A stretch of DNA of 64,000 bases. It comes from a virus. Below are positions 20,335 to 53,324 of this stretch, one piece after another. Position 1 is the stretch's first letter. Each line of letters starts with the position of its first letter. The translations under genes and the position numbers were made by a program. The notes beneath the pieces are model-generated. The model saw only the letters and a list, made by a program, of their open reading frames with translations, did no database searches and was not told the DNA's origin. Location: positions 17,327-81,326 of IMG/VR virus record IMGVR_UViG_3300029374_000315, one strand, 5' to 3'.

Positions 20335-20339
20335 AAACA

Positions 20340-23365: not shown

Positions 23366-23372
23366 TTGATAT

Positions 23373-23607: not shown

Positions 23608-23612
23608 TTTAT

Positions 23613-24282: not shown

Positions 24283-25822
24283 GTGAAACATTATGGAAGT
24301 ATTTGCGAGATTGATGGTTCTAAGATTGAGCCTGTCTCGTGTATCACTGGTGGTTCACCTTGTTAGCCAAGACCTTTCTATTGCCGGTAAGCGGGCAGGT
24401 TTGGCTGGAGAACGGTCTGGTCTATTTATGGAAATGATTCGTGTGATAAAGGAAATGAGGGATGCCACCAATGGAGAATGTCCAAAATTTGCAATCTGGG
24501 AAAATGTTAGAGGAGCACTTTCCTCAAACAACGGAGAAGACTTCCGATGCGTCTTGGAAGAATTTGCACACATCGTCGAAGCAGACGCTACAATTCCTAA
24601 ACCTTCGGGAAAAGGCGGAAAATGGTCTAAATCCGGCGCAATTTCCGGTAATGGATGGTCTTTGGCATGGAGACTCTTCGATGCTCAATATTGGGGAGTG
24701 CCCCAACGTCGTCAAAGAATCGCGCTTGTCATGGATTTTAGAGGACAACGTGCCGCAGAAATACTATTTGAGCGCACGGGCGTGCAATGGAATCCTGACG
24801 AGAGCATCCCGACGTGGCAAAGCTTTGCCAGAATTACTGAAGAATGCACTGCTAAAGATGATCGAGTGGTGGGAGAAAAAAGCTTTTGTATTGTCGGAAA
24901 CATGATTGACAGAGAAACCAACATGAACGGGACTGGTGTAAAAGAAGATACTGCTTTTACTATAAACACTATTGACCGTAATGCTGTTGCCTACACTTTA
25001 AAGATTCGTTCAGGATGCGAAGGTGGTGGCAAAGGCGCACTGGTACAGACCGAGAAGAGTGCAACGCTTTCTACATTGCAAGATCAAACGCTAATCTGCT
25101 TGGCAGACAACACCTCTTTACATAATTTAAAACAAAAGATTTGTGTCTTGAATGATCAGGGCGGTAGTGTAATGAATGTTTCTTACGATATTGTAGGAAC
25201 AATAAGAGCACAAGAGCATGGTCATCAACCAATTGTATTTGAGAGCCATAGTCAAGATGCTCGATACACCCAGCAAGGTAATACAAGTCCGGCTTGTACG
25301 GCTCAATGGGGAACTGGTGGCAATAATATGCCGCTTGTTGCCGAAAAGAAAGCCTTTGCAATGCAACGCATTGGTGAATACAAGGAAAGTGAACAAGCTA
25401 GTACGATGAAATCTCGTGACTACAAGGATGCTACTGACTTGATTGCAGAGAAGGAAACGAAGAATCTGCAATGGATTGTTCGTCGCCTGACTCCTGTTGA
25501 GTGTGAACGGTTACAGGGTTTTCCTGATGGATGGACCGATATTGGCGAGTGGTTTGATGAGAATGGTAAAAAGCACAAACCTGCCGATTCTCCTCGTTAC
25601 AAAGCACTCGGTAATTCAATCGCTTTGCCTCAGTGGTATTGGATTTTCCAGAAAATGAAACCGTATATCGGTGAAAATCCTACGCTTGGCAGTCTTTTCG
25701 ATGGAATTGGTGGCTTTCCGCTTGTCTTTGAAAGTATGTATGGTGATGGTACTGCTATCTGGGGATCAGAGATTGAACCGTTCTGCGTTGCAGTAACGAA
25801 GAAGCATTTCCCAGAAGACTAA
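24283..25822 (+). CDS. DNA (cytosine-5)-methyltransferase, circularly permuted; N-terminal catalytic segment in a different frame (frameshift/pseudogene or recoding)
   Basis: Frame A (GTG 24283) encodes ...EIDGSKIEPVSCITGGSPC then TAG at 24364. Frame B (24293..25822) continues QDLSIAGKRAG (motif IV), ENV (VI), QRRQR (VIII), RLTPVECERLQGFPDGW (IX), KALGNSIA (X), and at the C-terminus LFDGIGG (I) and SEIEPF...HFPED (II/III). Confidence 0.8.
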
Positions 25823-27820: not shown

Positions 27821-27891
27821 AAATTTTTTGCTTTTAACTAAGTAACACAGGATACCAATAAAAAAAAAGATTTAGAGAGGAATTTACATAT

Positions 27892-29052
27892 ATGGCTATT
27901 GTTTGTGATGCATCTGCTATTCGTAAGAAGCTTCGTATGCTTGTGTATGGCGAGCAGGGAACTGGTAAGTCTCGATTTGCTATGCAGTTCTGCTACATGA
28001 AGACTCCTGAAGGCCGTCCGTTCCGTGTTCTGTATCTGGATACTGAGTCTGGTTCTATCGACGATTATCGTGAGGAACTGATGGAGAATGGGCTCGATCC
28101 GATGAATCTCCGTATCGTTTACACTCAGTCTCTCGCAGAGGTACAGGATTTCATTCATACCGTCGCTGATAATGAGGACTTCGAAGATGAGGATGGTAAT
28201 GTTTGGCTTGACGCTGACGGTAAGCCTTTCCGTGCCGATGCTATCGTTGTTGACTCCGCAACTATTCTTAATCTGACTACGAAACAGGGCTTGACTAATT
28301 TCTCGCAGAAACGTGCAAAAGTTAAGGCTGCAGCACAGGGTTTGACCGGCGACGAGAAGTCTGTGAAGATCGAGGGTGCTGGTATGGAGTTGAAGGATTA
28401 TCAGCAGCTGAACTTTAAGGGTCAGTCCCTGATTCTGGATCTGAATGCAACTGGTGTGAGTTACATCGTCATTTGCCGTGAGAAGGATGAGACTGAAACC
28501 AAGCTGGTGAATGGTTCTTCTGTGAGCGTTTCTACTGGCCGCAAGATTCCTGATGGCTTCAAGGGTCAGGAGTACAATGTCGGCACCGAGTTCCGTATGT
28601 ATCATCCCGGCGATGATAAGTCTATCAATTTTGCTTATTTTGATAAGGATCGTACCGGTGTTCATAATGGCGGTGAGGTTGTAGAAGACCTGACTCTGCT
28701 TGAGTATCAGGAATATCTCGACCGTTCCGCAAAGAATCGTGAGGTCATTATCAAGAATGGTCTGAACGATGCAGTCAAGACGGAAATGAAGCTGCGTGCT
28801 CGTGAGCTTGGTCTTGACGACAATGATATCAGTGATGATGTTCCTGCAGAGAATACCTCCGAATCCAAGGAACCTTCTCTGGACGACATCAAGGCAAAGT
28901 TGAACGACCTGATTGCTTCTGCTTCTCCTGTGAAGAAGAGTGCCGCGCAGAAGGCTGTTAAGGCGGCTGGCCTGTCTACCGCATTCCGTTCTATGACTGA
29001 TATTGAGGAACTGAAGAAGGTTGCCGCAATCATGGAGAAGGAACTGGCTTAA
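27892..29052 (+). CDS. RecA-superfamily ATPase (phage recombination/Sak4-like or AAA_24-like)
   Basis: Walker A YGEQGTGKSRFA, Walker B-like VLYLDTES; motif copy F3 just upstream. Confidence 0.55.
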   Translation: MAIVCDASAIRKKLRMLVYGEQGTGKSRFAMQFCYMKTPEGRPFRVLYLDTESGSIDDYREELMENGLDPMNLRIVYTQSLAEVQDFIHTVADNEDFEDEDGNVWLDADGKPFRADAIVVDSATILNLTTKQGLTNFSQKRAKVKAAAQGLTGDEKSVKIEGAGMELKDYQQLNFKGQSLILDLNATGVSYIVICREKDETETKLVNGSSVSVSTGRKIPDGFKGQEYNVGTEFRMYHPGDDKSINFAYFDKDRTGVHNGGEVVEDLTLLEYQEYLDRSAKNREVIIKNGLNDAVKTEMKLRARELGLDDNDISDDVPAENTSESKEPSLDDIKAKLNDLIASASPVKKSAAQKAVKAAGLSTAFRSMTDIEELKKVAAIMEKELA

Positions 29053-30998: not shown

Positions 30999-32522
30999 GT
31001 GGAACTCATTTCAAATATCCCGAACGAAATTCTATTTGTTGGCGCAATTTACAAGCATCCTGACTATTTGGTCGAGTATGGGCATTATGTCAAGAGCAAG
31101 TACGATTTTGCCGATGAAGCAACAAAATTTTTCTACGATGCAGCGTTGATTATTTACGAAACTCGGACTCAAGAATTTAATAAAACGTCTGTTTTAACGT
31201 TTATGGCTGAAGACGAGTCCAGATTGTCCCAATATAAGCGGCTGAAGGGCTGGTCAACCATTGAATACTACATGAGCCTTGCGAATGACGATGATATCAA
31301 GGGATACTTCAATATCCTGAAAAAATATTCGTTACTTCGTGAGTACCAGAGAAATGGATTTAACATTGAAGGAATCTTGAAGCATCGACAGTTTGAAATG
31401 TTTGGTGCTCAGGACATTTACAAATTGATTCGTGGCAAGGCCGACAAGATCAATACGGTCATCATCACAAACGATGATGCTGAGATTTTGAATAATGGTC
31501 TGCTGCCAATGGTTAATGAACGTCTGAGCGTTCCTGATATGGGCTTGCCGTTCCAGTATCCCATCATGAATGATTTGTTCCGAGGATTGAAATTGGGCAC
31601 TGTGATGTTCAATGGTATGCCATCTAACGCTGGTAAGACTAGATACATGATGGCGATTGTTGCCTACGTCACATTGGTTCAAAAGCAGAAAGCTCTTCTG
31701 CTGCTGAATGAGATGGATCTTGAATCCGTCCGGTATTGCTTGCTGGTCACTGCCATCAATAATCCTGAGTTTCAAGAGTTGCATGGTCATCGCTTTCACA
31801 AGGATGAACGAGAAATCACCCTTGGAATGTACCGGGATGCAAATGGAAACTTCATCTTCCGAAAGCAAAACGAAGACGGGGAATACATAGAAAGCATTGA
31901 TGAGTTCACAGCTCGCGTCTATGAGGAAAGCGAAGAGTATCGCAATGTGCTTGATGTTTGCCAGTGGATTGAGAGCGAATCACAAGGCTTGATTATCGCA
32001 AAAGATGTTTCTGCTGATTATAGTGACAAGTCCCTACGATTTGAAATCCAGAAGGCAGCTCTCACTCAGGGAGTTAAGTATGTGTTCTACGATACTCTAA
32101 AGAACGACATTGCTTCGATTGGTGAATGGGCAGCGTTCAAGGTCACGGCCACCGAGCTTGAAGAGATTGCGAAAAATTTGAAGATTTTTATCTATGGTAG
32201 TATCCAGTTGGCCGAAAATGCTCATGAGTATCTTCCTGATGAGCTGAATTCAAACAACATTGCTGAGTCAAAAATGATTAAGCATGTTGCTTGGACGATG
32301 GTTCTATTCAAGGAGATTCCAAAAGATAAGTTCGTAAAGTATCAATACATCTCTCATGACCCTGAGTGGGGCGGTGACTGTGCCCATCGGCTGAATCCAG
32401 ATAAGCGGTATTACGTTGGAAACATCGATAAAAACCGTTTTGGTGAGAAAAAGAAAATCATGTTTGAAGTGAATTTGAACCAGAATGTCTGGAAAGAGGT
32501 CGGTGTCTGCACCAGAAAGTAA
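30999..32522 (+). CDS. replicative DNA helicase (DnaB-like)
   Basis: GTG start after AAGGGAGGTGG; DnaB-like N-terminal domain; Walker A GMPSNAGKTRYM; 507 aa. Confidence 0.7.
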   Translation: MELISNIPNEILFVGAIYKHPDYLVEYGHYVKSKYDFADEATKFFYDAALIIYETRTQEFNKTSVLTFMAEDESRLSQYKRLKGWSTIEYYMSLANDDDIKGYFNILKKYSLLREYQRNGFNIEGILKHRQFEMFGAQDIYKLIRGKADKINTVIITNDDAEILNNGLLPMVNERLSVPDMGLPFQYPIMNDLFRGLKLGTVMFNGMPSNAGKTRYMMAIVAYVTLVQKQKALLLLNEMDLESVRYCLLVTAINNPEFQELHGHRFHKDEREITLGMYRDANGNFIFRKQNEDGEYIESIDEFTARVYEESEEYRNVLDVCQWIESESQGLIIAKDVSADYSDKSLRFEIQKAALTQGVKYVFYDTLKNDIASIGEWAAFKVTATELEEIAKNLKIFIYGSIQLAENAHEYLPDELNSNNIAESKMIKHVAWTMVLFKEIPKDKFVKYQYISHDPEWGGDCAHRLNPDKRYYVGNIDKNRFGEKKKIMFEVNLNQNVWKEVGVCTRK

Positions 32523-32531
32523 GGAACTACA

Positions 32532-33554
32532 ATGGTAAATATCGCAGATTTGAAAAATTACATTCTTGAAGAACAACAGATTGAGCCGATTCTGGAGGAA
32601 CTTGGGTGTCATCACATCAGTCACAAGACTGGTTATTACCAGTGTGCAAATCCAGATGGTGACAATAGAACGGCACTCTGTATCTACGAGAATGAAAATC
32701 TTACTGCGGTAGATTACACACGAGATATTGCCAATGGAAAGACCAGTTATGATTTGATTTCTGTCGTTCAGTTCTTTCTGGAACTGTCTTTTCCAAAAGC
32801 CATTAAGCAAATCTGCGAATGGGTTGGTCTTGACTACTATCACAACTTCGAGGAAGACCTTCCTAAAAGTATGTTGATTCTAAAAGAACTTATCGCCATG
32901 CAAAATGAAGGTGAAGAACACGAGGATGACCGTCCGATAGTCCCCATCTCCGAAGCCATCCTCGGTTATTACAAACCTTATGTGAACCAGATTTTTGCTG
33001 ACGATGGGATATCTTATGAGACGCAGCAGGAGTTTGAGATTGGCTTTGATGAACTGACAAATAGAATCACGATTCCAATCAGAGATGAAATTGGCACTCT
33101 GGTTGGTGTAAAGGGAAGATACTTTGGTAAACCGCCTGAAGGTGAATTAAAGTATCTGTATCTTGAGCCGTGTGCCAGAAACCGTATTCTGTATGGCCTG
33201 TATAAGACAGAGCCGTACATTAAGAATAAAGGTCTGGTATATGTGGGTGAAGCTGAAAAGTCTGTTATGCAGATGTGGAACATGGATGTCTGCAACTGCG
33301 TAGCGACTGGCGGTAAGAAGGTTTCACAGAATCAAATTGAAATTTTGACACGTCTTTGCGTTAATATTTGTTTCGTCTTTGATAAAGACGTTCAGCTTAG
33401 TGAGCTTATGGTTCTCGCCAATCGATTCGTCGATGGCGTAAGTGTGTATGCTGTAGTAGATGATAAAGGGATTCTGGATGAAAAGGAAGCCCCAACTGAT
33501 AATCCTGAAAAATTTAAAGCATTGATTGAGAATTGTGTTAGGAGAATTAAATGA
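32532..33554 (+). CDS. DNA primase (DnaG-like, Toprim domain)
   Basis: N-terminal Cys/His cluster; Toprim signature VYVGEAEKSV...FVFDKD. Confidence 0.65.
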   Translation: MVNIADLKNYILEEQQIEPILEELGCHHISHKTGYYQCANPDGDNRTALCIYENENLTAVDYTRDIANGKTSYDLISVVQFFLELSFPKAIKQICEWVGLDYYHNFEEDLPKSMLILKELIAMQNEGEEHEDDRPIVPISEAILGYYKPYVNQIFADDGISYETQQEFEIGFDELTNRITIPIRDEIGTLVGVKGRYFGKPPEGELKYLYLEPCARNRILYGLYKTEPYIKNKGLVYVGEAEKSVMQMWNMDVCNCVATGGKKVSQNQIEILTRLCVNICFVFDKDVQLSELMVLANRFVDGVSVYAVVDDKGILDEKEAPTDNPEKFKALIENCVRRIK

Positions 33555-35299
33555 ATGTAAAACTCTGGAAGGGGAGTAGGAACGACCTATCAGACCCGAT
33601 TGGAACGATTATGGAGAACAGAGGGGTTGAGGATTATAAGACCTACATGAACCTAGATGATTCTTGTCTGAATTCTCCGTGGGAACTGGACAACATGGAA
33701 GATGCTGTCCGGCTGTTGAACAAACATATCTGGAATAAGTCTATTATCTCTATCCTTGTAGACTGTGATGTGGATGGATTCACAAGTGCTTCAATGATGT
33801 TTCAGTATTTGAAGACGATTGGTTATTTTGGAAAAATTAATGTTCTGCATCATAGTGGCAAGGAGCATGGCCTCTCTAAAGAAATTGAGGTTCCACCTGA
33901 AACTACCTTGCTGATTATTCCTGACGCTGGTAGTAACGATGTTGAGCAGTGTAAGGAACTCCGCGAAAAGGGCATCGATATTCTGATTCTTGACCATCAC
34001 ATCTGCGACAGAGAGAATCTTTACGCAGTAATCGTCAACAACCAGAACGGTACATATCCTAATAAGGAATTGTCTGGCGCTGGCGTGATGTATAAGTTTC
34101 TTCAGGCTGTTGATGAATATAATTGGACTGATGTTGCAGACCGGTATCTTGATCTGGTGGCAGTCGGAAACATCGGTGACGTTATGGATATGCACTCGCA
34201 TGAGACAAAGCGCCTTTGCACGAAAGGTCTGGCACGAATTGTAAATCCGATGATTTGTGCCTTGGTTGAGGCGAATAGTTTCAATATCAAGGGTGATCCG
34301 ACTATCAATGATGTTCAGTTCTACATCGTTCCGATGATGAACGCACTGATTCGCGTTGGCTCATCCGAGCAAAAGAAGCGGATGTTCCGTGCGATGGTTG
34401 GAGAGGAACAGACCTTCCAGTATACTCCGACTCGTGGCAAGAATGCCGGTGTTACGATTGATGAGACTCTGGCGCAGCATGTAGCTCGTGAGTGTTCCTC
34501 TTGTAAGTATCAGCAAAACAAGACCAAGGACAAGGCTGTCGCAGAGCTTCAGGAACTGATTGAGAAGCACAGTGCAGACCAGAATAAGATTCTCTTCTGC
34601 AACTCTACTGGCATTCTTGATAACACTCTGACTGGTGTTGTGGCAATCAAGCTGGCTGAAATGTATGCAAAACCGTGCGTATTGCTTCGTACCTTCGCTG
34701 ACGAACCGGATTATTACGGTGGTTCAATGAGAAATCCTGACGGTTCTCCGATTGAAAGTTTAAAGGAGTTCTTGATGAGTACCGGAGATTTTGAGTCAGT
34801 TCTTGGTCATGATAATGCTGCTGGTGTGAAAATCAAGAAAGAAAATGTGCCAAAGGCGATTGCGGATTGCAATGAACTGCTTAAAGATGTCACGATGAGT
34901 AAGGCAATCGTAGTTGATTTTGATTTTGACTATAGTAAGCTGACCGTTGCATTGCCGAAGACCATGTACGAAATGCATAAAATCTGGGCACAGGGTATTT
35001 CCGAGCCGTATTTCTACATTAGAAATATTCCGTTAGCTCATAGTGGATGTGCTCCGATGGGCAAGAACGGTAATATGTGGAAGTATTCTGATGAAGAAAA
35101 AGGCATTGATTTTGTGTGTTTTAATGATAATGGACGACTGATTGATTGGATTGAAGATAGTTTCGAGGATGATGAAGTTGTTACTTTTTATGGAGACAAT
35201 TATGCAAAAATTATCAATGCTGTGTGTCGGTTGTCTTTAAATCAGTACGGGAATAAGGTTACGCCGCAAGCGCAGATTGTGGATTTTGAGGTGATTTGA
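33551..35299 (+). CDS. DHH-family phosphoesterase (RecJ-like ssDNA exonuclease)
   Basis: DHH motifs VDCDVDG, IPDAG, ILDHH; 582 aa. Confidence 0.7.
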   Translation: MNVKLWKGSRNDLSDPIGTIMENRGVEDYKTYMNLDDSCLNSPWELDNMEDAVRLLNKHIWNKSIISILVDCDVDGFTSASMMFQYLKTIGYFGKINVLHHSGKEHGLSKEIEVPPETTLLIIPDAGSNDVEQCKELREKGIDILILDHHICDRENLYAVIVNNQNGTYPNKELSGAGVMYKFLQAVDEYNWTDVADRYLDLVAVGNIGDVMDMHSHETKRLCTKGLARIVNPMICALVEANSFNIKGDPTINDVQFYIVPMMNALIRVGSSEQKKRMFRAMVGEEQTFQYTPTRGKNAGVTIDETLAQHVARECSSCKYQQNKTKDKAVAELQELIEKHSADQNKILFCNSTGILDNTLTGVVAIKLAEMYAKPCVLLRTFADEPDYYGGSMRNPDGSPIESLKEFLMSTGDFESVLGHDNAAGVKIKKENVPKAIADCNELLKDVTMSKAIVVDFDFDYSKLTVALPKTMYEMHKIWAQGISEPYFYIRNIPLAHSGCAPMGKNGNMWKYSDEEKGIDFVCFNDNGRLIDWIEDSFEDDEVVTFYGDNYAKIINAVCRLSLNQYGNKVTPQAQIVDFEVI

Positions 35300-37150: not shown

Positions 37151-40100
37151 ATGTCAGATAATTTTGTAAATCTTCATGTACATACAGCGCAGGGTTCGTT
37201 ACTTGACTCTATTCTTACCGTCAAGGAACTTGTAAACTTTGCCAAAGAAAACGGCCAGAAAGCAATCGCGGTTACAGACCACGGAAAAATGCACTCTTTT
37301 GTTGACCAAGTTAAGGCTTGCAAGGAAGCAGGCATTAAGCCAATCATCGGCTGTGAGGTCTACGAAGTAGATAATCAGAGCGAAAAAGCTGATACGAAAG
37401 ACTATAAACAACCTCGTTATCATCTTGTTCTGCTGGCAAAAAACGAGACCGGTTTGAAAAATCTGTTCAAGGTTGTTTCAAATGCTTGCGTTGATGGCAT
37501 GTATAAAAAGCCTCGAACTTCTTTAAACATCATTGAACAGAACGAGTGGGGTAAAGGTATCATCTGTCTTACGGCCTGTCAAGTTGGTCGAATGAGTAGA
37601 TTGCTTGTTGATGGGAACGAGACTGAGGCATGGCAGTTATGGAACAAACTGAAATGGATCTTTGATGACGTGTTTATGGAAGTTCAGTCTCATGATACGC
37701 CAGATCAGGCTGAAGCTAATGCCAAAATTGCAGCTTTTATCAAAAAGTACAATCTTCCGTATACCATTACAACCGATGCTCATATGCTTTCCAAGGAAGA
37801 TGTTGATGCACATTCAGTTTTTGTAGAAATTGGAGAAGGACGAGAAGTTGGAGAAAGTTATGTTGACTGCTATCTTCAGACCGAAGACGATGTGCTAAGA
37901 ACACTTTCAAAGCAGTTTGATGAAGACTTCATCCGAGAAGGTTGCTCAATGTCTGTGAAAATTGCAGATATGGTTGACGATATTGATATTGGCCTTGGCC
38001 AGCCAAACCAGATGCCAGAAGTAAAAATTGAAGGTAAATTTGATTCGCATCTGGATTACCTGCGTTACCTCGTTTATTCTACTTTTGATGAAAAATTCGG
38101 ATGGATGAGTAAAGAAGAACAGCAAACCAGGCGGGACAGAATTGAGATGGAGCTTGACGTTTTGGAATATGTTGACTACATCGACTATTTCATCATGCTG
38201 TATATGCTTTGTAAGGTGGCCGATGAACGAGGTATCCCTCGTGGCTATTCTCGTGGTTCTGGTGCAAACTGTCTATGTCTATTTATGCTAAACGTTACGC
38301 AGATTGATTCTGTTCGTTGGGATCTTGACTTCTCTCGTTTTGCAAATAAGGGTCGTAAGAGTCTCGCGGACTTCGACTTTGATATTAGCCGTCGTCGTCG
38401 CAAAGAACTTGTTTCTATTGCAGAAGAGCTTTTTGGAAAAGAGAGTGTAGCACCAATCGCAACTTTTAATTCTCTGTCTACCAAGGTTGCCATTAAGGAT
38501 ATTGGAAAGGTACTGAACGAAGATCCAGAAAGCCCATATTATATGCAGATTCCGTATGAATTGCGAAATGAAGTTGCTAAGTTGATTCCGACCGTGAAAA
38601 CATTGGATGATCTCGGAGAAGAAGTTGAGAAGGAAGTTCTATTGAAGGACATTCTTGGAAAGAGCGAGCAGCTTTCTAATGTGTATGATAAGTTCCCTCT
38701 ATGGTTTAAGTACGTTATGCGGCTTGAAGGTTTACCGAAAAGTATGGGTCGCCATGCTGCAGGAACTTTGATTACGCCTAAGCCTGTCATTGAATATTGT
38801 CCTCTCTGTATGGATAGAGAAGGAAATCAGATGTGTCAGCTTGAAATGCACAATGCAATGGACGACTTATCATTGGTCAAGATGGATTTTCTTGGTCTTG
38901 AAAATTTGGACACGATTGATGACACATTAAAGATGGCCGGTCTAACTTGGAAGGATGTTGACATCAACCATCTCGATCTAAACGATAAGGCGGTCTACGA
39001 CGCAGTTTATAAGTCTGGACACACAATTGGTATTTTTCAGATGGAGTCTGCTGAAGCTCGAAAGATGTGTGTTGAAGCAAAATGTGACAACGCCGAGGAT
39101 ATCATTGTTGTGAATGCAGCAAACCGCCCTGGCACTAAGGACAGCTTCCCGACGTATTGTTCCAATAAGCTTCATCCAGAGACTATCAAACTACTTCATC
39201 CTGACATCAAACAGCTTTTTGCCAAGACTCAGTACATTCTTCTTTATCAGGAACAGGCTCTGGCAGTATTTCGTTATGCAGGATTCCCTGAAACTGAGGT
39301 TGACAATGCTCGTCGTGCCATTGGTAAGAAAAAGAAAGATGTTATGGCATCCTTGGAGGTCCAGTTTAGAGATGGTCTTCACAAAAAAGGATGGAACGAT
39401 TATCAAATTTCTGAGATGTGGGCATTGATCTTGAAACAGGCTTCTTATTCCTTCAATCGGGGCCACGCAGTTGCTTATGGACTTCTTTCTTACCTAACAG
39501 CATACTTGAAGACTCATTATACTGAGTATTTCATGGCTGCGTGTATGATTACTAAAGAAGATGATTCTGGCAAAATGGGTGTGTTCATCAATGAATGTGA
39601 CCGTCTACATATTCGGGTCCTTCCTCCAAGTGTTAACAGGTCTGATATGGAATTTAAGGCCGATGCGGAGAAGCACACAATTTTGTTTGGCTTGAAGGCC
39701 ATTAAGGGAATGGGCGAGAGTGTCGCATCAGGGGTGATTGCAGACCGTCCATATTCTGGATTGGCAGACTTTGTTCAGAGAGCAAACGGTGGAAAGATTG
39801 GCACTTCAAACGTTGTCAAGTTGATTAAGGCTGGAGCTATTCCAACAAGGGACAAGAGAAAAATCTTAATCACTTTTGCAAATATGGTTTTTGAGAATGA
39901 GTATAAAGAGAAGGGTTTTCATGAGATGGCATCTCTTCCCAAAATCTCTGTTCTTAAAGACGAATATGGGATTGACACAAATTATATTAAAGATAAGCCT
40001 ACTAGACTTGTTTTATATAATAAGGCACGAAGGGTGCGCTGGGAGGCAGATGCGGAGAACCGTAAGAAGGAAAAAGACAAGAAACGAAAAGATTTCATGC

Positions 40101-40498
40101 AGGCGTTTGCTGAAAAGTATATGCAAGACGAGCACATGTGGGAATTTGAAACCCTTTCAATGTTCTTAACTAGCAATCCAATTAAGGATGCTTGTACCTA
40201 TATTGATGCTTGTCTTGATACTGTAGAGGATGGCGGTGAGGCAACTGCTATTTGTGTCATCGTAGACATTCAAAAAAAGAAGGATAAACGTGGCAACCAG
40301 TTTGCATACTTACATGTTTACACGACAGGTGGTATTGTTGAAATGATTTGTTGGGCTTCCCAATATGCACGATATTCCAATTTGATCTCAAAGGGTAGTG
40401 ATCTTGCAATTCTTTGTAAGAGAAAAGAGAATTCGTACATTGTTGAGAAGATGAAGCCTTACAAGCAGTGGTTGCAAGACAGAGAGATAAAGCAATGA
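37151..40498 (+). CDS. dnaE: DNA polymerase III alpha subunit (DnaE-type, PHP domain)
   Basis: N-terminal PHP motif NLHVHTAQGSLLDS...AVTDHG; 1115 aa. Confidence 0.85.
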   Translation: MSDNFVNLHVHTAQGSLLDSILTVKELVNFAKENGQKAIAVTDHGKMHSFVDQVKACKEAGIKPIIGCEVYEVDNQSEKADTKDYKQPRYHLVLLAKNETGLKNLFKVVSNACVDGMYKKPRTSLNIIEQNEWGKGIICLTACQVGRMSRLLVDGNETEAWQLWNKLKWIFDDVFMEVQSHDTPDQAEANAKIAAFIKKYNLPYTITTDAHMLSKEDVDAHSVFVEIGEGREVGESYVDCYLQTEDDVLRTLSKQFDEDFIREGCSMSVKIADMVDDIDIGLGQPNQMPEVKIEGKFDSHLDYLRYLVYSTFDEKFGWMSKEEQQTRRDRIEMELDVLEYVDYIDYFIMLYMLCKVADERGIPRGYSRGSGANCLCLFMLNVTQIDSVRWDLDFSRFANKGRKSLADFDFDISRRRRKELVSIAEELFGKESVAPIATFNSLSTKVAIKDIGKVLNEDPESPYYMQIPYELRNEVAKLIPTVKTLDDLGEEVEKEVLLKDILGKSEQLSNVYDKFPLWFKYVMRLEGLPKSMGRHAAGTLITPKPVIEYCPLCMDREGNQMCQLEMHNAMDDLSLVKMDFLGLENLDTIDDTLKMAGLTWKDVDINHLDLNDKAVYDAVYKSGHTIGIFQMESAEARKMCVEAKCDNAEDIIVVNAANRPGTKDSFPTYCSNKLHPETIKLLHPDIKQLFAKTQYILLYQEQALAVFRYAGFPETEVDNARRAIGKKKKDVMASLEVQFRDGLHKKGWNDYQISEMWALILKQASYSFNRGHAVAYGLLSYLTAYLKTHYTEYFMAACMITKEDDSGKMGVFINECDRLHIRVLPPSVNRSDMEFKADAEKHTILFGLKAIKGMGESVASGVIADRPYSGLADFVQRANGGKIGTSNVVKLIKAGAIPTRDKRKILITFANMVFENEYKEKGFHEMASLPKISVLKDEYGIDTNYIKDKPTRLVLYNKARRVRWEADAENRKKEKDKKRKDFMQAFAEKYMQDEHMWEFETLSMFLTSNPIKDACTYIDACLDTVEDGGEATAICVIVDIQKKKDKRGNQFAYLHVYTTGGIVEMICWASQYARYSNLISKGSDLAILCKRKENSYIVEKMKPYKQWLQDREIKQ

Positions 40499-40755: not shown

Positions 40756-43086
40756 GTGGCAGATAAGAAATTTAATGAAAATATGATCCGTTGCTACATT
40801 AGGATAAAACGAGTCTTTTATCCGAAAGATGGGAGGGAGGTGGAGCCCGGCGGCTTCGCCACTTTCTCTGCCGAGGTGGTAAAAATCAAGCAGGGGAATC
40901 CTGTTATGAGTCGATACAGCGACCTCCGGCTAAAGGGCAACGTTCCTAGTCTCGATATGAATAAAACTTATTCGTTCTGTGGTGAGTATGTTCATCATGA
41001 AAAATTTGGCGATCAGTACAAAATCATCTATATGAATGAGTTTCAAGAGATCACTGACCCGGAAGAACAAAAAAGCTTTCTCCGTTTTATCTTGACTGAC
41101 CATCAGTTTGAGATGCTTTACGAAGCATTCGACAATCCGTATGAAATTATCAAGAATGGTGATATCAAGTCTCTTTGTACTGTTAGCGGTATTACGGAAG
41201 GTCGAGCACAAAAGATCATTGACTCTTTTGAAAACAACGTTGATAACAGTGAAGCGTACACAAAACTGGTTGAATACGGTTTGACCCCCAGTGCTATTGA
41301 AAAGCTTGTTCGTCAGTATCACGGTGCAGACACTCTGGTAAGAAAGATTGAGGAGAATCCTTACGTCCTGATCGATGATGCGTATGGCATTGGCTGGAAA
41401 AAAGCTGACACTCTTGCTTTGAATATGGGTTTAAAGCGCAATTCGCAATTCAGAATCGAAGCTTACGTCATGCATTTTCTTGCCGCCCGTGCCGAAGAAG
41501 GTAACTCTATTATCCCAGCAAACCAGACAATCAATAGCTGTATTAAGGAACTTGATTTGAACGAGGGTGACCAAGAAGTCATCAAAAGGGCATTTTTCCA
41601 TCTGCATGATGTTCGTGAAACGCTTTGGTGGAGTGATGACCGTCAGGAATTTGCTTTAACTAGAGTGTGGAATCTTGAAGATGAAATCGCAAAGGAAATC
41701 AAGCGACTGGCGGATGCACCTGTTAAACCGATTGGTCGAAACATGGATGTAGCAATCAATGAAGCTGAGGGTGCGCTTGGCATCGAGTATACTGAAGAGC
41801 AGAGAGATGCTATTAAAAAGGTATGTTCTAGCAACGTCTGTATCTTAACAGGCTACGGCGGAACTGGTAAAAGTACCGTTGTCGCTGGTGTTCTAAAGGT
41901 TCTTCGTGGTAAGTCTTTCGCTCAGACTGCACTCTCTGGTCGTGCCGCAGCTCGTATGCAGGAGATTACTGGTCAGGATGGTAAGACCATCCATCGTCTT
42001 CTTGGTTATGATATTGAGAATGGTGGTTTCATTCATAAGAAGGACAATCCTCTTGAAGAAGATATTATCATTCTGGATGAGACATCTATGGTTGGAGCTC
42101 AGTTGTTCTATGACTTGATTCAGGCAATCGAGACCGGAAAGCGATTCATCATGATTGGCGATGACGGCCAGCTTGAGAGTATCGGTATGTGTAACATTTT
42201 CAAGGATATGCTTGCATCTAAGGTTGTTCCTGTGGCTCGTTTGACTAAGATCCATCGTCAGGCGGCTAAGTCTGCAATTATCACGGAGAGCATCAAGGTT
42301 CGTAACGCTACACAATTGGTGCCTTATGGCTGGGCTGGTAGTGAGATTCGTGGTGAACTTCGTGATTTGGAGCTTGATATCTATAAAGACACAAGTGAAT
42401 CATTCAACCACATCATCAATCAGTACCGTACCTTATATAATAAGGTGGGGAATGATAGTGCGAAGATTCAGATTGTACTTCCACAGAAGCTGCGTGGTAG
42501 TATCTGTACTTATGAAGTCAATAATGCTATTCAGGAAATTGTGAATCCGAGTCGTGGTCAAGCAGAAGCAAAGGTCACAATCTATGGTGATGGCAAGGAT
42601 AGAGTGTATACTCTGCGTGAGGGCGATCAGGTCATCATTAACAAGAATAACTATGAGCTTCACACATACAATCTCAAGACAAAGAAAAAGGAAGAGAAAT
42701 GTCCGGTGTTCAATGGAAACCGTGGCATTATCCGAAAGATTGAGAGTAGTTTTATCCTGGTTGATTTTGACCAGTGGGGAACGATATTTATTCCTCATTA
42801 TTTTGGTGGGAATAACATCTGGGCAACACTTGAACTCGCTTATGCTTTGAGTTGCCATAAACTGCAGGGCAGCGAAGCTCCGTATGTGATTGTCGGTATG
42901 GACAACTCTGCATACCTGATGTTAACGAGAGAATGGCTCTATACGGCCATCACTCGTGCCAAGAAGTATTGTGTGATTTGCGCTGAAACCCATGCTCTTG
43001 ATCGAGCAGTAAAGACTTCGAGAGTACCGTACAAGCGGACGTTCTTGAAGGAATTTTTACGGAAAGAATTTTCAGAAAAGCGTTGA
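40756..43086 (+). CDS. RecD2-like superfamily-1 DNA helicase
   Basis: Walker A TGYGGTGKST, Walker B IIILDETSMV, HhH-like SGITEGRAQKII; 776 aa. Confidence 0.8.
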   Translation: MADKKFNENMIRCYIRIKRVFYPKDGREVEPGGFATFSAEVVKIKQGNPVMSRYSDLRLKGNVPSLDMNKTYSFCGEYVHHEKFGDQYKIIYMNEFQEITDPEEQKSFLRFILTDHQFEMLYEAFDNPYEIIKNGDIKSLCTVSGITEGRAQKIIDSFENNVDNSEAYTKLVEYGLTPSAIEKLVRQYHGADTLVRKIEENPYVLIDDAYGIGWKKADTLALNMGLKRNSQFRIEAYVMHFLAARAEEGNSIIPANQTINSCIKELDLNEGDQEVIKRAFFHLHDVRETLWWSDDRQEFALTRVWNLEDEIAKEIKRLADAPVKPIGRNMDVAINEAEGALGIEYTEEQRDAIKKVCSSNVCILTGYGGTGKSTVVAGVLKVLRGKSFAQTALSGRAAARMQEITGQDGKTIHRLLGYDIENGGFIHKKDNPLEEDIIILDETSMVGAQLFYDLIQAIETGKRFIMIGDDGQLESIGMCNIFKDMLASKVVPVARLTKIHRQAAKSAIITESIKVRNATQLVPYGWAGSEIRGELRDLELDIYKDTSESFNHIINQYRTLYNKVGNDSAKIQIVLPQKLRGSICTYEVNNAIQEIVNPSRGQAEAKVTIYGDGKDRVYTLREGDQVIINKNNYELHTYNLKTKKKEEKCPVFNGNRGIIRKIESSFILVDFDQWGTIFIPHYFGGNNIWATLELAYALSCHKLQGSEAPYVIVGMDNSAYLMLTREWLYTAITRAKKYCVICAETHALDRAVKTSRVPYKRTFLKEFLRKEFSEKR

Positions 43087-43111
43087 CAATTATGTGCGTA
43101 TCCTGTATAAT
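43083..43111 (+). promoter_or_regulatory. sigma70-type promoter TTGACA-N17-TATAAT overlapping a reverse-orientation motif copy
   Basis: Exact consensus hexamers; -35 overlaps the recD-like stop codon; -10 inside GTATCCTGTATAATATAGCT. Confidence 0.65.
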
Positions 43112-43180
43112 ATAGCTATAAAAAGTCTCCATCCCGGAGGCTTAAAATTCTCTCTTTAGCTATATAATACAGGATACGAG

Positions 43181-43220
43181 AAAGAAATGGCTTGCTCGTA
43201 ATGACAAGCCTTTCTTTATT
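43181..43220 (+). terminator. hairpin/terminator-like structure (AAAGAAATGGCTTG-loop-CAAGCCTTTCTTT)
   Basis: 13-bp interrupted stem with 10-nt loop followed by ATT; lies between motif copies F4 and F5. Confidence 0.4.
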
Positions 43221-43259
43221 GGCTTTAACTATATAACACAGGATGCTCAAGGAGGTTTT

Positions 43260-44591
43260 ATGACAGATAAGGAGCTCATAGGTAAGCTCGATGCGATGGT
43301 AAAGGCATTGCAGCGCACGAAGAAAAAGACAGACAAGACCCGCATTTTGCTGGATGCGCGAAAGGATTTTGGGGCTGAAGCTGACGAGTTGATGGCCTTC
43401 TTCCGATTCTTGCTTGATCCGGCAATCATAACTGGACTGTCGGATGCAAAAATCAATAAACAGGTGAGTGCCAAGCCGGATATTGATATTCAGTATCTCA
43501 GTTGCGGATACCTTTATATTATGGCCGGTAGCCACAATACTGGATCGGACGTAGCAATTGCAACCATCCAGAATTATTTACATAAAAATCCTGAGCATGA
43601 AGAGTTTCTAAAGCGATTGTTCACTAAGAACCTGCCGATCGGAGTCGAGGCAGCTACCATCAATAAGGTGTACGGCGAAGAAATTATTCCTGTCTGGGAG
43701 GTTCAGCAGGGGTATCCGATTGATAAAGTAAAGCTGAAGGATGGCATTTGGTTCAGTTTGAGCCAGAAGATGAATGGAAATAGGGGCACCATGTATAAAG
43801 GCGAGCTCATCTCTCGGCAGGCTCAGAAGTTTAAAGGACTCGACCATATAAAGAATGACCTGCTTTCTCTATACGATGGAGACGCCTCAAGGCGAGATGC
43901 GTGGGTGTTTGATGGTGAGCTGATCTACAAGAACCCAGAAAGAATGTCGGACGGAGAGGCTTTTCGTTATGGCACTGGCCTACTTAATTCTGACAACAAG
44001 GACAAGACTGGAATCAAATTTGTGATTTTTGATGTGATTCCTGTTGTAGAGTTCGACCGTGGAAAGTGTACTATCCCATATAAAATTCGCCGTATTGGAT
44101 TAAATTGTCTTCGCGCAGAGATTACTCGCAAGCACCTTGAAAATATTGAGATTGTGCCGATGGTCTATGAGGGCACTGACCAGAGTGTGATTTCGAAGTG
44201 GCTTGATTATGCGGTTGAGAACGATTGGGAAGGTCTTATGTTGAACACGGACGTCCCTTATCGTCGGACTCGTCATAATGGTTGCCTGAAAGTCAAACGC
44301 TTCTACACTGTTGACTTGCGAATCACTGCGATTGAGGAAGGTCAGAACCGTCTGGCTGGTACGATGGGCGCTCTTGTTGTGGATTACAAGGGTAATGAGC
44401 TTCGTGTTGGTTCTGGTTTTGATGATACTACGAGAGCTGCTGTGTGGGCAAATCCTGATAATTACATCGGCAAGATTGTGGAAGTAAAATTCAAGGAAAA
44501 GAGCTGCGATAAGAAGACTGGCGCAGAATCCTTGCAGTTCCCGACTTTTGTGCGTTTCCGAAACGATAAGAATGAAGTAAGCTACGGTTAA
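43260..44591 (+). CDS. ATP-dependent DNA ligase (T7-type, adenylation + OB domains)
   Basis: Motif I KMNGNR (N in place of the usual D), III FDGELIY, IV EGLMLN, V CLKVKR; OB-domain GSGFDD..R...FPTFVRFRNDKN. Confidence 0.75.
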   Translation: MTDKELIGKLDAMVKALQRTKKKTDKTRILLDARKDFGAEADELMAFFRFLLDPAIITGLSDAKINKQVSAKPDIDIQYLSCGYLYIMAGSHNTGSDVAIATIQNYLHKNPEHEEFLKRLFTKNLPIGVEAATINKVYGEEIIPVWEVQQGYPIDKVKLKDGIWFSLSQKMNGNRGTMYKGELISRQAQKFKGLDHIKNDLLSLYDGDASRRDAWVFDGELIYKNPERMSDGEAFRYGTGLLNSDNKDKTGIKFVIFDVIPVVEFDRGKCTIPYKIRRIGLNCLRAEITRKHLENIEIVPMVYEGTDQSVISKWLDYAVENDWEGLMLNTDVPYRRTRHNGCLKVKRFYTVDLRITAIEEGQNRLAGTMGALVVDYKGNELRVGSGFDDTTRAAVWANPDNYIGKIVEVKFKEKSCDKKTGAESLQFPTFVRFRNDKNEVSYG

Positions 44592-50201: not shown

Positions 50202-53200
50202 ATGGAATATGTGATTAAACGCGATGGAACGAAAGTTCCTTTTGATAAAAGTAAGATTGTAAATGCAATCGAGAAGGCGATGAATGATTCCTCAGATCCT
50301 GTTGACCACAAGCTGAGTGATAGTATTGCATCGGAAATCGCAGCAATCGATTCTACTATGGATGTAGAAGCAATTCAGAATGCAGTTGAAAATCGCCTTA
50401 TGCAGAGTGGTTACTATGAGACAACTCGTTCTTATATGAACTATCGGTATCTGCATGGTATTGCTCGCAGCAACTACAAGGAGCTGATGGATGCGGTTGA
50501 AGAAAAACTTCTTGGCAAGAAGATTGATAATCAGAATGCCAATGTCGATGAAGCATCTTTTGGCGGTCGTATTGGCGAGATGAGCCGGGTGGTTTCCAAG
50601 CGATATGCTCTTGACTACTGTATGTCTAAGATGGCTCGTGAGAATCACGAGAACAATGAAATTTATATCCACGATCTCGATAGCTACGCAGTTGGTATGC
50701 ATAACTGCTACGATTCCGCTACAAAGTTTATTACTCAAACTGGTGTTAAGCGTTTTGGCGACTGTACCGATGGTCAAATTGTGTATGTTCTGGATAAGAA
50801 TGGCGAGTGGAGAAAAGCAACCGTTCATAAATATGGAAAGCAGAAAATGTATGAGTTGACTTTCAAAAGTAGCCTTACTACTAAAAAAGTCACATGTACT
50901 AGAAATCATCGTTGGGTTCTTGAAAATGGAGAGGTCACTGACAATATCAATATTGGAGATTCTTTGATTCTGACCACAAAAGTGCAAAATAAATATTCAT
51001 CCAATGATAGCTTGTGGTGTTTTGGTTTTGTTCTTGGAGATGGCGTTGACTTTTATATGAAGTCAAAGGATAAGAGCAGAATCACAAACAGCAGTATGCA
51101 GGTTCGTCTTTGTGGGCATAAAATTGAATATATCAATAAATTTTTGGATAATGGCTGGTCAAAAAGACAGACACACAAAAACGGAGATATCACATTGATT
51201 TCTCGTGGGAATGGTGCTTTTAAACAGGCGTTCTTGGATAATGAATTTTGGAAGATCATGTCATATGATGACCTGTGCAATATTTTTGAAGGTTACGTTC
51301 ATGCTGATGGACATTTTAGAGAAAATGGTTCAGTAATGCTGTCAACGTCTGATCCTCGAATGAAGCACTTTATTGAAGATGTGTCATCCGTTTGCGGCTA
51401 TTACATTTGGTCTGAAAATGAGAAATTTAATGACACAAATTTTAAGGATGGCAGAACCTTATACGAGTTTTATTTGGTAAAAGAGCAGTCTACGAAATGG
51501 ACTTTGCAAAGTATTGCGGCCAGCAGAGACGGCGATAATGGGTATAAAACTGCATGGTGTGTCGAGGAGCCCGTAACAAAAACGTTTATTCTTGATGGTT
51601 GTATGACTACAGGTAACTGTTTAAGTATCCCGTTTGATGACCTGCTTGCGAATGGTTTCAACACTCGCCAGACCGATGTTCGTCCTGCACAGTCCATCAG
51701 TACGGCATTCCAGCTTGTCGCAGTCATCTTCCAGATTCAAAGTCTTCAGCAGTTCGGCGGCGTGAGCGCAACACACCTAGACTGGACTATGGTTCCTTAT
51801 GTACGGAAGAGCTTTTCGAAGCATTTTAAAGATGGGATTAAATACATTAAGCCTGAAGATGACCCCAGCAGAGTACCCAAAGAATTATCTTTTAACGACC
51901 TAGAGGCTAATGATCCAAGGAATGCAAAAGTATATCAGTACGCAATGGATATGACCAAACGTGAGTTGAACCAAGCCGTTGAAGGCATGTACCATAATCT
52001 AAATACACTCCAATCACGTAGCGGAAATCAGCTTCCGTTCACGTCTATCAACTATGGCACATGTACGTTGCCTGAAGGCCGAATGGTTATCGAAGCATTG
52101 CTAAATGCTTCCATTAAGGGTATCGGCAAATTACATAGAACTAGCATTTTCCCTTGTGGTATTTTCCAGATGGCTAAGGGAATCAATCGTGCTCCCGGAG
52201 ACCCTAATTACGATATGTATCAGCTGGCACTGCGTTCCACTGCACAGCGTCTTTATCCTAATTATGCCAATGTCGATTGGAGCGGCAATGAAGGATACGA
52301 TAAAAATAATGTAAAAACGTATTTTTCGACGATGGGCTGTAGAACTGCAAATGGTTGGGATGTCAACGGCTTTGAGCAGTTGAAGGATGGCCGAGGGAAT
52401 ATCTGTCCTGTTACGATTATTCTTCCTACTCTTGCAATGGAAGCGAAGGAATATACCATTAAAAACGCTACTGGAGAAGACCTTGAAGGACAGACTGTAG
52501 CCAAGTTTATGTCCATTCTTGACCAGAAGTTGCATGAAGCAAAAGATATGCTGATTGAACGCTTCGAGTGGATTTGCTCTCAGTCTCCTGAGTCTGCAAA
52601 ATTCATGTGGGAGAATGGAACAATGGCCGGATATGACGGAAAAGATATTCGTTCCGCTCTGAAACATGGCACGTTGGCTGTTGGTTTGCTCGGCATGGCT
52701 GAAACTCTTCAGATTTTGATTGGAGAAGATCAAACTTGTGATAATGGCCTTGAGCTTGCAAAGAAAATTTGTCAGCTCTACAAAGATCGCTGCGACGAAT
52801 TCAAGCACAAGTATTCTCTAAATTTTGGCGTGTACTTTACGCCCGCAGAAAACCTTTGTTTTACTGCCATGCAGAGATTTAAGGCAAAATATGGTGATAT
52901 TAAAAACGTTTCAGACAAAGAGTTTTTCACTAACAGTGTCCATGTTCCGGTATGGCGAGAAGTGACACCGTTTGAAAAGATCGATATTGAGTCTCAGCTT
53001 GACGGATATTCAAGCGCAGGCTGCATCGCGTATGTAGAGCTCGACTCGACTGTAAAGAATAATCTCGGTGCGCTGGAAACAATTGTGAACTATGCAATGG
53101 ATCATGACATTCCGTATTTTGCAGTGAATGTTCCAAATGATACCTGTATGGAATGCGGTTATTGTGATGAGATTGGTGATACTTGCCCTGAGTGTGGAAG

Positions 53201-53324
53201 TCATAATATTCGGCGTCTTCGTCGTGTGACGGGCTATCTCACGGGCGATTACACTACAGCTTTCAATCTTGGTAAGCAGCAAGAAGTTGAGCTTCGTGTT
53301 AAGCACAATCGAGTGATTCATTAA
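50202..53324 (+). CDS. nrdD: anaerobic ribonucleoside-triphosphate reductase (class III, NrdD) containing an intein
   Basis: N-terminal ATP-cone; C-terminal Zn ribbon CMECGYC..CPECG and glycyl-radical motif RRVTGYLTGD; 285-aa insertion with Hint and LAGLIDADG blocks. Confidence 0.85.
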   Translation: MEYVIKRDGTKVPFDKSKIVNAIEKAMNDSSDPVDHKLSDSIASEIAAIDSTMDVEAIQNAVENRLMQSGYYETTRSYMNYRYLHGIARSNYKELMDAVEEKLLGKKIDNQNANVDEASFGGRIGEMSRVVSKRYALDYCMSKMARENHENNEIYIHDLDSYAVGMHNCYDSATKFITQTGVKRFGDCTDGQIVYVLDKNGEWRKATVHKYGKQKMYELTFKSSLTTKKVTCTRNHRWVLENGEVTDNINIGDSLILTTKVQNKYSSNDSLWCFGFVLGDGVDFYMKSKDKSRITNSSMQVRLCGHKIEYINKFLDNGWSKRQTHKNGDITLISRGNGAFKQAFLDNEFWKIMSYDDLCNIFEGYVHADGHFRENGSVMLSTSDPRMKHFIEDVSSVCGYYIWSENEKFNDTNFKDGRTLYEFYLVKEQSTKWTLQSIAASRDGDNGYKTAWCVEEPVTKTFILDGCMTTGNCLSIPFDDLLANGFNTRQTDVRPAQSISTAFQLVAVIFQIQSLQQFGGVSATHLDWTMVPYVRKSFSKHFKDGIKYIKPEDDPSRVPKELSFNDLEANDPRNAKVYQYAMDMTKRELNQAVEGMYHNLNTLQSRSGNQLPFTSINYGTCTLPEGRMVIEALLNASIKGIGKLHRTSIFPCGIFQMAKGINRAPGDPNYDMYQLALRSTAQRLYPNYANVDWSGNEGYDKNNVKTYFSTMGCRTANGWDVNGFEQLKDGRGNICPVTIILPTLAMEAKEYTIKNATGEDLEGQTVAKFMSILDQKLHEAKDMLIERFEWICSQSPESAKFMWENGTMAGYDGKDIRSALKHGTLAVGLLGMAETLQILIGEDQTCDNGLELAKKICQLYKDRCDEFKHKYSLNFGVYFTPAENLCFTAMQRFKAKYGDIKNVSDKEFFTNSVHVPVWREVTPFEKIDIESQLDGYSSAGCIAYVELDSTVKNNLGALETIVNYAMDHDIPYFAVNVPNDTCMECGYCDEIGDTCPECGSHNIRRLRRVTGYLTGDYTTAFNLGKQQEVELRVKHNRVIH
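50763..51617 (+). other. intein with LAGLIDADG homing-endonuclease domain inside nrdD
   Basis: Starts CTDGQIVYVLDKNG (block A), then TCTRNHRW (block B), LAGLIDADG-like LWCFGFVLGDGVDFY and IFEGYVHADGHF, ends ...FILDGCMTTGN followed by Cys+1. Confidence 0.75.

Follow-up and report, generated by a model that had tools for sequence, protein, structure and literature searches.

The IMG/VR virus record IMGVR_UViG_3300029374_000315 derives from a large gut phage of the SPbeta-like type with a genome of roughly 135 kb, of which we analyzed 64 kb (record positions 17,327 to 81,326; hereafter the window). From ~17 kb on, almost all long open reading frames (ORFs) of the window lie on the plus strand. 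Between the genes for a RecD2-like helicase and an ATP-dependent DNA ligase, at 43083-43260, a compact region holds a consensus promoter (P1), three copies of an asymmetric 21-bp sequence (the box) and two hairpins. This region is probably a repressor-gated early sigma-A promoter for the ligase gene, at which the box is read by the phage's own master repressor, a protein of the MrpR/YopR/SroF family. Coordinates are those of the window and are collected in Table 1.

The control region upstream of the ligase gene

P1 matches the sigma-70 consensus at 12 of 12 positions, as a first-pass annotation of the sequence had read it, and its -35 hexamer overlaps the stop codon of the recD2-like gene (TGA, 43084-86). 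Transcription from P1 would start near 43118. In sigma-70 scans of 60 kb, the total of promoter-like sites equals that expected from shuffled sequence; only three sites score 11-12/12 (at 18447, 18865 and 43083), and P1 is the sole perfect match among them. No strong sigma-A promoter was found in the interval 20.4-43 kb or in the interval 43.3-60 kb.

The three copies of the motif reported earlier are all present where they had been placed. Box 1 is in reverse orientation; reaching from about -20 to +1 of P1, it takes in the proximal spacer, the -10 element and the start site. Boxes 1 and 2 stand back to back, with 40 bp separating their 20-mers, around the small CTCC..GGAG hairpin that had been seen before; its stem comprises 8 bp, and it would form at the very 5′ end of the P1 transcript (hairpin 1). 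Behind box 2 follows a longer hairpin (43181-43217), for which a stem of 13 bp had been noted and which folds into 15 pairs with two bulges. It has the characteristics of an intrinsic terminator, namely a G+C-rich stem with a GGCUUG/CAAGCC core and a U-run tail (UUUCUUUAUU), and it looks bidirectional. It would also end the upstream PolIII-RecD2 transcript, as the RecD2 stop codon and P1 have no other terminator between them. Box 3 lies 4 nt from the terminator tail and, as described, directly before the ligase ribosome-binding site (RBS), 3 nt ahead of AGGAGG. Folding of the P1 leader predicted no alternative antiterminator pairing, and Rfam gave no family match for the region.

An alignment of the 220 nt upstream of the ligase gene from the window and 55 distinct relatives (A3, 56 sequences) has a mean column identity of 94%, with the layout kept in all relatives. 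Both hexamers of P1 are invariant while the spacer varies, and only a few sequences depart from box 1 (GTATCCTGTATAAT). Near-invariant are also the hairpin-1 stem, the stretch GCTTAAAATTCTCTCTTT, the ACAGGATAC cores of the boxes, the terminator stem and the RBS; the variable parts are the 8 nt from the -35 to box 1, the hairpin-1 loop and the linker between terminator and box 3. The TATAAT-like hexamer of box 2 reads ACGTGAC in one clade, with the core ACAGGATAC kept, and box 2 is therefore not maintained as a -10 element. Both hairpins are preserved as well: 99.8% of the cells of the hairpin-1 helix are paired, one pair changing from CG to UA in five sequences and to UG in three, and 99.3% of those of the terminator helix, where all changes are of the G-U type. 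The compound transcriptional control proposed in the first-pass annotation is supported, the box copies resembling operators for a DNA-binding protein around a consensus promoter.

A 21-bp box dispersed over the window

The box has the consensus T-A-R-C-T-A-y-r-T-A-A-Y-A-C-A-G-G-A-T-A-C; it is asymmetric and non-palindromic and consists of two conserved blocks (with parts such as ARCTA and CAGGATAC) around a variable, AT-rich center. Its position matrix was built from 347 distinct copies pooled from the window and the fetched relatives, in a collecting scan that required CAGGA by construction. The edges are sharp, information content falling below 10% of 2 bits just 3′ of the box (past position 20); on the 5′ side, forward copies show a T-rich tendency only. 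A search of the window with the 20-mer, allowing up to three mismatches, returned six matches, against 0.00 expected from 100 shuffles, and a seventh copy lies at 27836. All seven copies are intergenic and spread over 18.9-43.3 kb. The exact 9-mer ACAGGATAC occurs in the window only at six of these seven sites; box 3 carries ACAGGATGC instead. The motif had been described as a local feature of the ligase control region, where it is indeed present, but it is a box used genome-wide, found by our count at five further intergenic sites.

The copies fall into two kinds of places. The reverse copies (18880 and 43098) cover the proximal spacer, the -10 element and the start site of near-consensus sigma-A promoters, so that two of the only three such promoters in the 60 kb scanned have a reverse box over the -10. 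The forward copies (20371, 24246, 27836, 43158 and 43227) follow a terminator or T-run and stand 3-36 nt before an RBS or start codon. Placement in a promoter region thus holds for part of the copies, the stand-alone forward boxes having no recognizable sigma-A promoter: scans of both strands by tool and by hand gave no convincing one beside them. The TATAAY part of forward boxes is variable (CGTGAC, AGTAAC, TACAAC) and not conserved as a -10.

Table 1. Features of the control region, further boxes and promoters, and genes of the window
Feature	Coordinates	Strand	Remarks
Promoter P1	43083-43111	+	-35 TTGACA 43083-88, 17-bp spacer, -10 TATAAT 43106-11
Box 1 (reverse)	43098-43118 (20-mer 43098-43117)	-	minus strand reads AGCTATATTATACAGGATAC
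Hairpin 1 (leader)	43123-43143	+	8-bp stem (43123-30 with 43136-43), 5-nt loop; contains CTCC/GGAG; by fold
Box 2 (forward)	43157-43177 (20-mer 43158-43177)	+	reads AGCTATATAATACAGGATAC; about +40 to +60
Intrinsic-terminator-like hairpin	43181-43222	+	A-tract, GGCTTG..CAAGCC stem, tail TTTCTTTATT
Box 3 (forward)	43226-43246 (20-mer 43227-43246)	+	reads AACTATATAACACAGGATGC; about +109 to +129
ATP-dependent DNA ligase gene	43260-44591	+	RBS AGGAGG 43250-55, ATG at 43260
RecD2-like helicase gene	40756-43086	+	stop codon overlaps P1 -35
Promoter of pemK-repressor operon	18865-18900	+	TTGACT, 17-bp spacer, TATAAT; reverse box 18880-18900 over -10
PemK/MazF-like toxin gene	18931-19356		first of two-gene operon; Pfam E 5e-19
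Candidate box-binding protein gene	19408-20334	+	308 amino acids, MrpR/YopR/SroF family
Forward box	20370-20390	+	~7 nt after T-tail of terminator, 24 nt before next gene
Forward box	24245-24265	+	after tRNA cluster and weak terminator, directly before C5-methylase RBS
Forward box	27835-27855	+	before replication module, upstream of AAA_24 gene at 27892
Bro-N/Ant-like ORF	9175-10494
Integrase-family ORF	10973-11842		Pfam-positive, tyrosine integrase type
tRNA cluster	23001-24140		seven genes (Leu x3, Pro, Gln, Gly, Met)
AAA_24 protein gene	27892-29052
DnaB-like helicase gene	30999-32522
Primase gene	32532-33554
RecJ-like exonuclease gene	33551-35299
PolIII alpha gene	37151-40498
NrdD gene	50202-53324

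Two further arrangements came from relatives found in an exact-pattern scan of IMG/VR. In one (L178, 6940-7055), TTGACA-N9-reverse box is followed by a small hairpin, a T-run, a forward box and an RBS, which is the P1 design without the terminator. In the other (L176, 660-745), two outward-facing boxes stand back to back, 40 nt apart, between diverging genes; they enclose a promoter with an extended -10 (TTGAAT-17-TGgTATAAT), whose start lies ~4 nt before the forward box. A back-to-back spacing of ~40 nt is common to all three cassette types.

The genes behind the boxes are less constant than the boxes. Comparing the window with its relatives (L086-L165), different genes follow the boxes at junctions of the 20371, 24246 and 27836 types; the boxes therefore mark junctions of mosaic modules. 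In one example, the gene encodes either a 692-amino-acid phrog_1735 protein or a 736-amino-acid AAA_33/Metallophos/RNA-ligase protein, and the genes behind the tRNA cluster also differ between close relatives. Other interpretations of the motif were dropped: an element resembling a miniature inverted-repeat transposable element, bounded by 20-bp terminal inverted repeats (the cassettes do not share their internal 40 bp, and many boxes stand alone), as well as boxA/nut-like and MazF-cleavage-site readings, whose resemblances proved unsupported.

A candidate repressor with a recombinase fold

In phage SPbeta, the master repressor MrpR binds the SPBRE (SPbeta repeated element) at ten promoter regions, the one of its own yopM-R operon among them (Kohm et al. 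2023, PMC10516654). Its relative SroF of phage phi3T encircles DNA as a monomer and reads 24 of the 26 bp of an asymmetric box, with sites genome-wide; for repressors of the MrpR/SroF type, no oligomers have been seen (bioRxiv 10.1101/2025.11.27.690993). By profile comparison and structure prediction, the product of the gene at 19408 is a member of this family, with the core-binding (CB) and catalytic (CAT) domains of tyrosine recombinases. The link between this gene and the motif was drawn in the present analysis and has no precursor in the first-pass annotation.

By itself, the 308-amino-acid protein is hard to place. It has a sub-threshold Pfam match to MrpR_N_CB (E 4.9e-4), tblastn against SPbeta YopR was negative, phmmer against the PDB returned Tn1549 Int only (E 0.1), and hhalign with a shallow 14-sequence profile reached YopR at E 0.07. 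A profile search of 1.8 billion representative proteins added remote relatives and gave a 33-sequence alignment (A4). Twenty of its 33 members match MrpR_N_CB, at best with 7.7e-16, and the 33-sequence profile aligns with SPbeta YopR over 264 columns (hhalign probability 97.4%, E 9.8e-12). An hmmsearch of the PDB found YopR/MrpR over the full length at E 1.1e-11, followed by XerA at 0.0035. The deeper alignment raised the pLDDT of the AF2 model from 67 to 90.5, and the top seven Foldseek matches of this model in the PDB are all SroF, YopR or MrpR (E 2.6e-8 to 2.8e-7; Cre next, 4e-4), the best being the DNA-bound phi3T SroF (9rd5, E 2.6e-8, TM 0.64). The Arg-I position of tyrosine recombinases (R225 of Tn1549 Int; K in the R225K entry) aligns with Thr138, which is invariant in 14 close homologs; the residues invariant across all 33 sequences of the family are M1, Y298 and W301 only. 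Searching viral contigs with P0099, P0103 and alignment A5 gained no further distant relatives.

A MrpR/SroF-type protein would need a box of this kind, 21 bp long and asymmetric, with scattered copies that serve one at a time and can point either way. We infer that the box is the functional counterpart of the SPBRE and that the 308-amino-acid protein binds it. The gene itself is bracketed by boxes: the copy at 18880 lies over the promoter -10 of its two-gene operon, and the copy at 20371 follows the terminator that ends it (stem 20339-20355, tail to about 20363). Since promoter and box at 18865 have the same geometry as at P1, autoregulation of the repressor is implied. A third near-consensus promoter, 400 bp upstream of this boxed one, lacks the GTATCC part of the box (18447-18474; TTGACT-16-TATAAT after TGTG) and precedes an ORF of ~108 amino acids (18520-18845) without a Pfam match; within the switch region, this promoter may escape repression or be regulated in another way.

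A PemK/MazF-like gene always stands directly upstream of the MrpR-like gene, in the window as well as in L173 (9506-9922), L175 (713-1150) and L166-L171, and this adjacency holds even where repressor identity is as low as 24-28%. The MazEF system of the host contributes to the choice between lysis and lysogeny in arbitrium phages of Bacillus, which draws attention to a phage-borne MazF beside the repressor. Pfam and PHROG scans of the window ORFs, which cover about half of the genome, revealed no arbitrium (aimR/aimP) or Sar-like antirepressor genes, in the absence of a dedicated search.

Repeats in distant repressor lineages

Two distant relatives carry repressors about 28% (P0103, in L173) and about 24% (P0106, in L175) identical to that of the window and keep the synteny PemK - repressor - ... 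- YorF - AAA_24 - YorH - DnaB - ... - PolIII alpha. The ACAGGATAC box is absent from both. In L175, a different repeat of 16 nt, TAAGCACACAAACACT, occupies three equivalent positions. One copy immediately follows the -10 of the TTGACT-17-TAAAAT promoter that precedes pemK, another comes behind the terminator of the repressor gene, and the third precedes the yorF-like gene. In L173, one equivalent position holds a tandem 22-nt repeat, which lies between the repressor-gene terminator and the next RBS. A position that is kept while its sequence changes with the repressor lineage is what would be expected of a repressor-operator pair.

Proposed mechanism

In a lysogen, a repressor monomer on box 1 (about -20 to +1) would occlude sigma-A polymerase at P1, while monomers on boxes 2 and 3 may act as roadblocks or insulators against both transcription started at P1 and read-through from PolIII-RecD2. 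The same logic would apply behind the repressor operon, which would be transcribed in the lysogen and where the terminator at 20339-55 is followed by the box at 20371. Once the repressor is inactivated, P1 would fire and yield an RNA that starts with the conserved 5′ hairpin. A 5′ hairpin of this kind is probably a stabilizer, in line with mRNA decay in Firmicutes. The RNA would then cross box 2 and meet the terminator, and only read-through transcripts would reach the ligase gene. Because the P1 transcript must read through this terminator, ligase expression would be attenuated. Attenuation had been suggested before and is plausible, since the long hairpin is an intrinsic-terminator-like structure. 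Operator looping, suggested along with it, finds no support, as the known MrpR/SroF-type repressors bind as monomers (bioRxiv 10.1101/2025.11.27.690993).

The order of promoter before terminator may reflect attenuation or a separate RNA of ~105 nt. In the latter case, P1 and the terminator could release a repressor-controlled RNA (43118-43222), with the 5′ hairpin and a CU-rich single strand, that has a function of its own. A further, rather doubtful idea concerns the boxes that stand 4-10 nt behind terminators or T-runs (box 3, 20370, 24245). These could be switchable gates, at which a single monomer stops polymerases that have leaked past the terminator in the lysogen. Such gates would insulate lytic modules in a stretch of mostly co-directional long ORFs, and after derepression the leaky terminators would only attenuate.

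Alternative explanations

Several observations weigh against repression by a box-binding monomer. The five stand-alone boxes of the window and the boxes of L175 are co-oriented with the downstream gene, and the stand-alone boxes lie after a T-rich stretch and before an RBS, a promoter-like place, with no sigma-A promoter adjacent. No other promoter is visible for the genes that follow the strong terminator at 20339. A promoter upstream of a terminator is odd, and repression alone does not explain it. The co-variation of repressor and repeat would look alike for a co-diverging polymerase and its promoter; and since close relatives have repressors 86-100% identical and an unvarying box, that argument rests on the two distant loci.

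In one alternative, the forward box is itself a phage-specific promoter, used by a phage sigma factor, a YonO-like polymerase or a modified host polymerase to drive the blocks behind terminators, the reverse copies serving to shut off host-type early promoters or yielding antisense RNA. The co-oriented position of all stand-alone boxes between terminator or T-run and RBS would suit this well, as would the divergent boxes of L176, which face outward to their genes, the dearth of strong sigma-A promoters on either side of P1, and a length of ~21 bp with sharp edges, appropriate for the promoter of a single-subunit polymerase. The pattern tTTAR-N12-GGATAC is also loosely like sigma-B-type promoters. 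However, a terminator directly follows box 2, and box 3 and several other boxes lie only ~13-25 nt from a start codon. Two of the seven copies are reversed relative to all genes and would fire antisense into the upstream genes. The ~100 ORFs of the window encode no sigma factor or RNA polymerase domain, though they represent 64 kb of a roughly 135-kb genome, which tempers this argument. The boxes also vary in register where they meet sigma-A promoters by overlap or direct contact, lying in reverse over the -10 (P1, the promoter at 18865, L178) or forward just after the start site (L176, L175), and therefore steric repression fits and a box acting as the promoter does not; in the characterized homologous system, such boxes are repressor sites. 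We regard this alternative as unlikely.

It is more improbable still that the inverted pair of boxes 1 and 2 is maintained as a structure, whether as a hairpin in RNA that reads through from RecD2 (for RNase III-type processing or as a stabilizer) or as a DNA cruciform. The read-through RNA is predicted to form a hairpin of ~21 bp with a z-score of -6.2, and in the 56 sequences 94.8% of the cells of the box 1-box 2 helix are paired. Double changes occur in three columns (CG 29/UA 16; AU 42/GC 5; one sequence at the outermost pair), two of these columns thus changing on both sides, and the back-to-back geometry of ~40 nt recurs in the two other cassettes. Against this, several columns have uncompensated mismatches in 7-10 of the 56 sequences, and the outermost pair has them in 24. 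With just 40 bp between the arms, linked inheritance can also mimic covariation. Solitary copies, which make up four of the seven in the window, have no partner to pair with, the arms in L176 would lie on divergent transcripts, and box 1 is outside the P1 transcript.

Finally, the boxes could be junctions for homologous recombination that shuffles modules, or remnants of recombination sites. Different genes behind the same box in relatives would agree with this, as would the tyrosine-recombinase fold of the candidate binding protein. Yet a box of 21 bp offers little length for homologous exchange, and any conserved regulatory cassette will commonly give rise to mosaic junctions as a by-product. 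The inverted copies are 40 bp apart, compared with the 6-8-bp crossover spacer of a tyrosine-recombinase core site, and the position of Arg I is taken by the Thr138 described above. For these two reasons, the recombination-site pair raised in the first-pass annotation is also unlikely. The precise overlap of boxes with -10 elements indicates transcription control instead, and we give the junction explanation very little credence.

Comparison with known repressor systems

Taken as a repressor-operator pair, the system is best filed as a remote new member of the MrpR/SroF-SPBRE class, with a box of its own and some unreported geometries. For comparison, we extracted the SPBREs from NC_001884. 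The element reads ..TAGACAaatacaaatAATATGTATAtaat.. and contains a sigma-A-like TAGACA-17-TATAAT, the conserved part being the spacer and the -10. All copies are co-oriented with the downstream gene, and some abut the RBS, at 24 nt (yopM, the first gene of the repressor operon), 28 nt (yonX) and 30 nt (yopV) from the start codon.

SPbeta and the window thus share a homologous recombinase-fold repressor and a non-palindromic box repeated in intergenic or promoter regions (about ten times in SPbeta, at early and lysis-lysogeny genes). In both, one copy precedes the repressor operon, boxes lie over the sigma-A spacer and -10 or abut the RBS, and the surroundings include an SPbeta-like replication module. 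The box sequences are unrelated, however (..AAATAATATGTATA.. in SPbeta, compared with the consensus given above), and the repressor is remote from YopR, with about 15% identity and, taken alone, a score below the Pfam cut-off. SPbeta uses one fixed register and orientation, whereas the box of the window is reversed over the -10 at two promoters and stands alone behind terminators elsewhere; no back-to-back pairs with 40 bp between them are described for SPbeta. The source also differs, being human-gut metagenomes.

Structurally, phi3T SroF (PDB 9rd5, 9rgl) is the protein that the predicted model matches best (TM 0.64, to the DNA-bound form). The type of site agrees too, as the SroF monomer reads ~24 bp of an asymmetric sequence and the asymmetric 21-bp box occurs as single copies pointing either way. 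The phi3T box is rich in A-tracts (CAGTAATTTTATTTTTATTCTTAATG), unlike the two blocks around an AT-rich center found here.

The sites of lambda CI (OR/OL) are short palindromes, bound by cooperative dimers and clustered at two loci. Like them, the boxes overlap early promoters, with several copies per control region and a repressor gene that appears to be autoregulated; unlike them, they lack symmetry, are probably bound by monomers and are spread across 25 kb or more. T4-type promoter-stem-loop cassettes (PeSLs) consist of plain early promoters and stem-loops at module junctions, without a dedicated repressor box. They too are conserved promoter/hairpin cassettes between variable modules, a likeness that concerns genome mosaicism only.

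Genome context and relatives

The closest annotated ligases belong to large SPbeta-like phages of Bacillus, Brevibacillus and Staphylococcus. Ligases 76-95% identical to that of the window occur on ~80 IMG/VR contigs of 120-140 kb, nearly all of which come from a single human-gut data set. Homologs of the 19408 gene are also found on contigs of up to 784 kb, which, together with the integrase-family ORF, suggests that the phage is temperate. A megablast with 6 kb of the window gave no match among GenBank phages, and the nearest GenBank relatives by ligase (MT835556 and MT835469) have neither the motif nor the architecture. A protein scan of genome contigs found no relative that would point to a host, and a host search via cluster names returned 'integrase' only. 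In 596 Gb of genomes, the exact 18-nt box pattern has 28 scattered single matches without similarity to the window; four of these (L303, L306, L307 and L308) are in Faecalibacterium contigs that are otherwise dissimilar to the window, and are either chance or a faint hint at the host.

Upstream of the switch region, a Bro-N/Ant-like ORF and a second integrase-family ORF echo YopP and YopR of SPbeta, and the Bro-N/Ant-like ORF is a possible antirepressor. A promoter-like site, TAGACA-18-TAGAAT, precedes the tRNA cluster (22893-24140); SPBRE promoters of SPbeta have a similar -35, TAGACA. Directly behind the following box, the match to C5-cytosine methyltransferases is split over two stretches of a 509-amino-acid ORF (24293-25822). 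The NrdD-like anaerobic ribonucleotide reductase has 1040 amino acids, of which only residues 468-1037 form the best-scoring PHROG stretch; the ~460 N-terminal residues beyond it may be an extra domain or an insertion. Nearby ORFs encode ThyX, a FolD-like protein, a dUTPase and a radical-SAM activase.

Significance

The MrpR/SroF class, whose members are recombinase-fold monomers that read very long sites, has been described recently and so far comes from Bacillus SPbeta-like phages. The locus would extend it to an abundant family of 120-140 kb phages in human-gut metagenomes and supplies a concrete predicted operator together with its genome-wide map. It would also add arrangements that have not been described for SPbeta, i.e. 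boxes lying in reverse over the -10, pairs placed back to back at a distance of 40 bp, and boxes directly behind terminators. This offers testable predictions for the control of lysogeny in uncultivated gut phages, and the compact repressor/operator pair may be usable as a tool.

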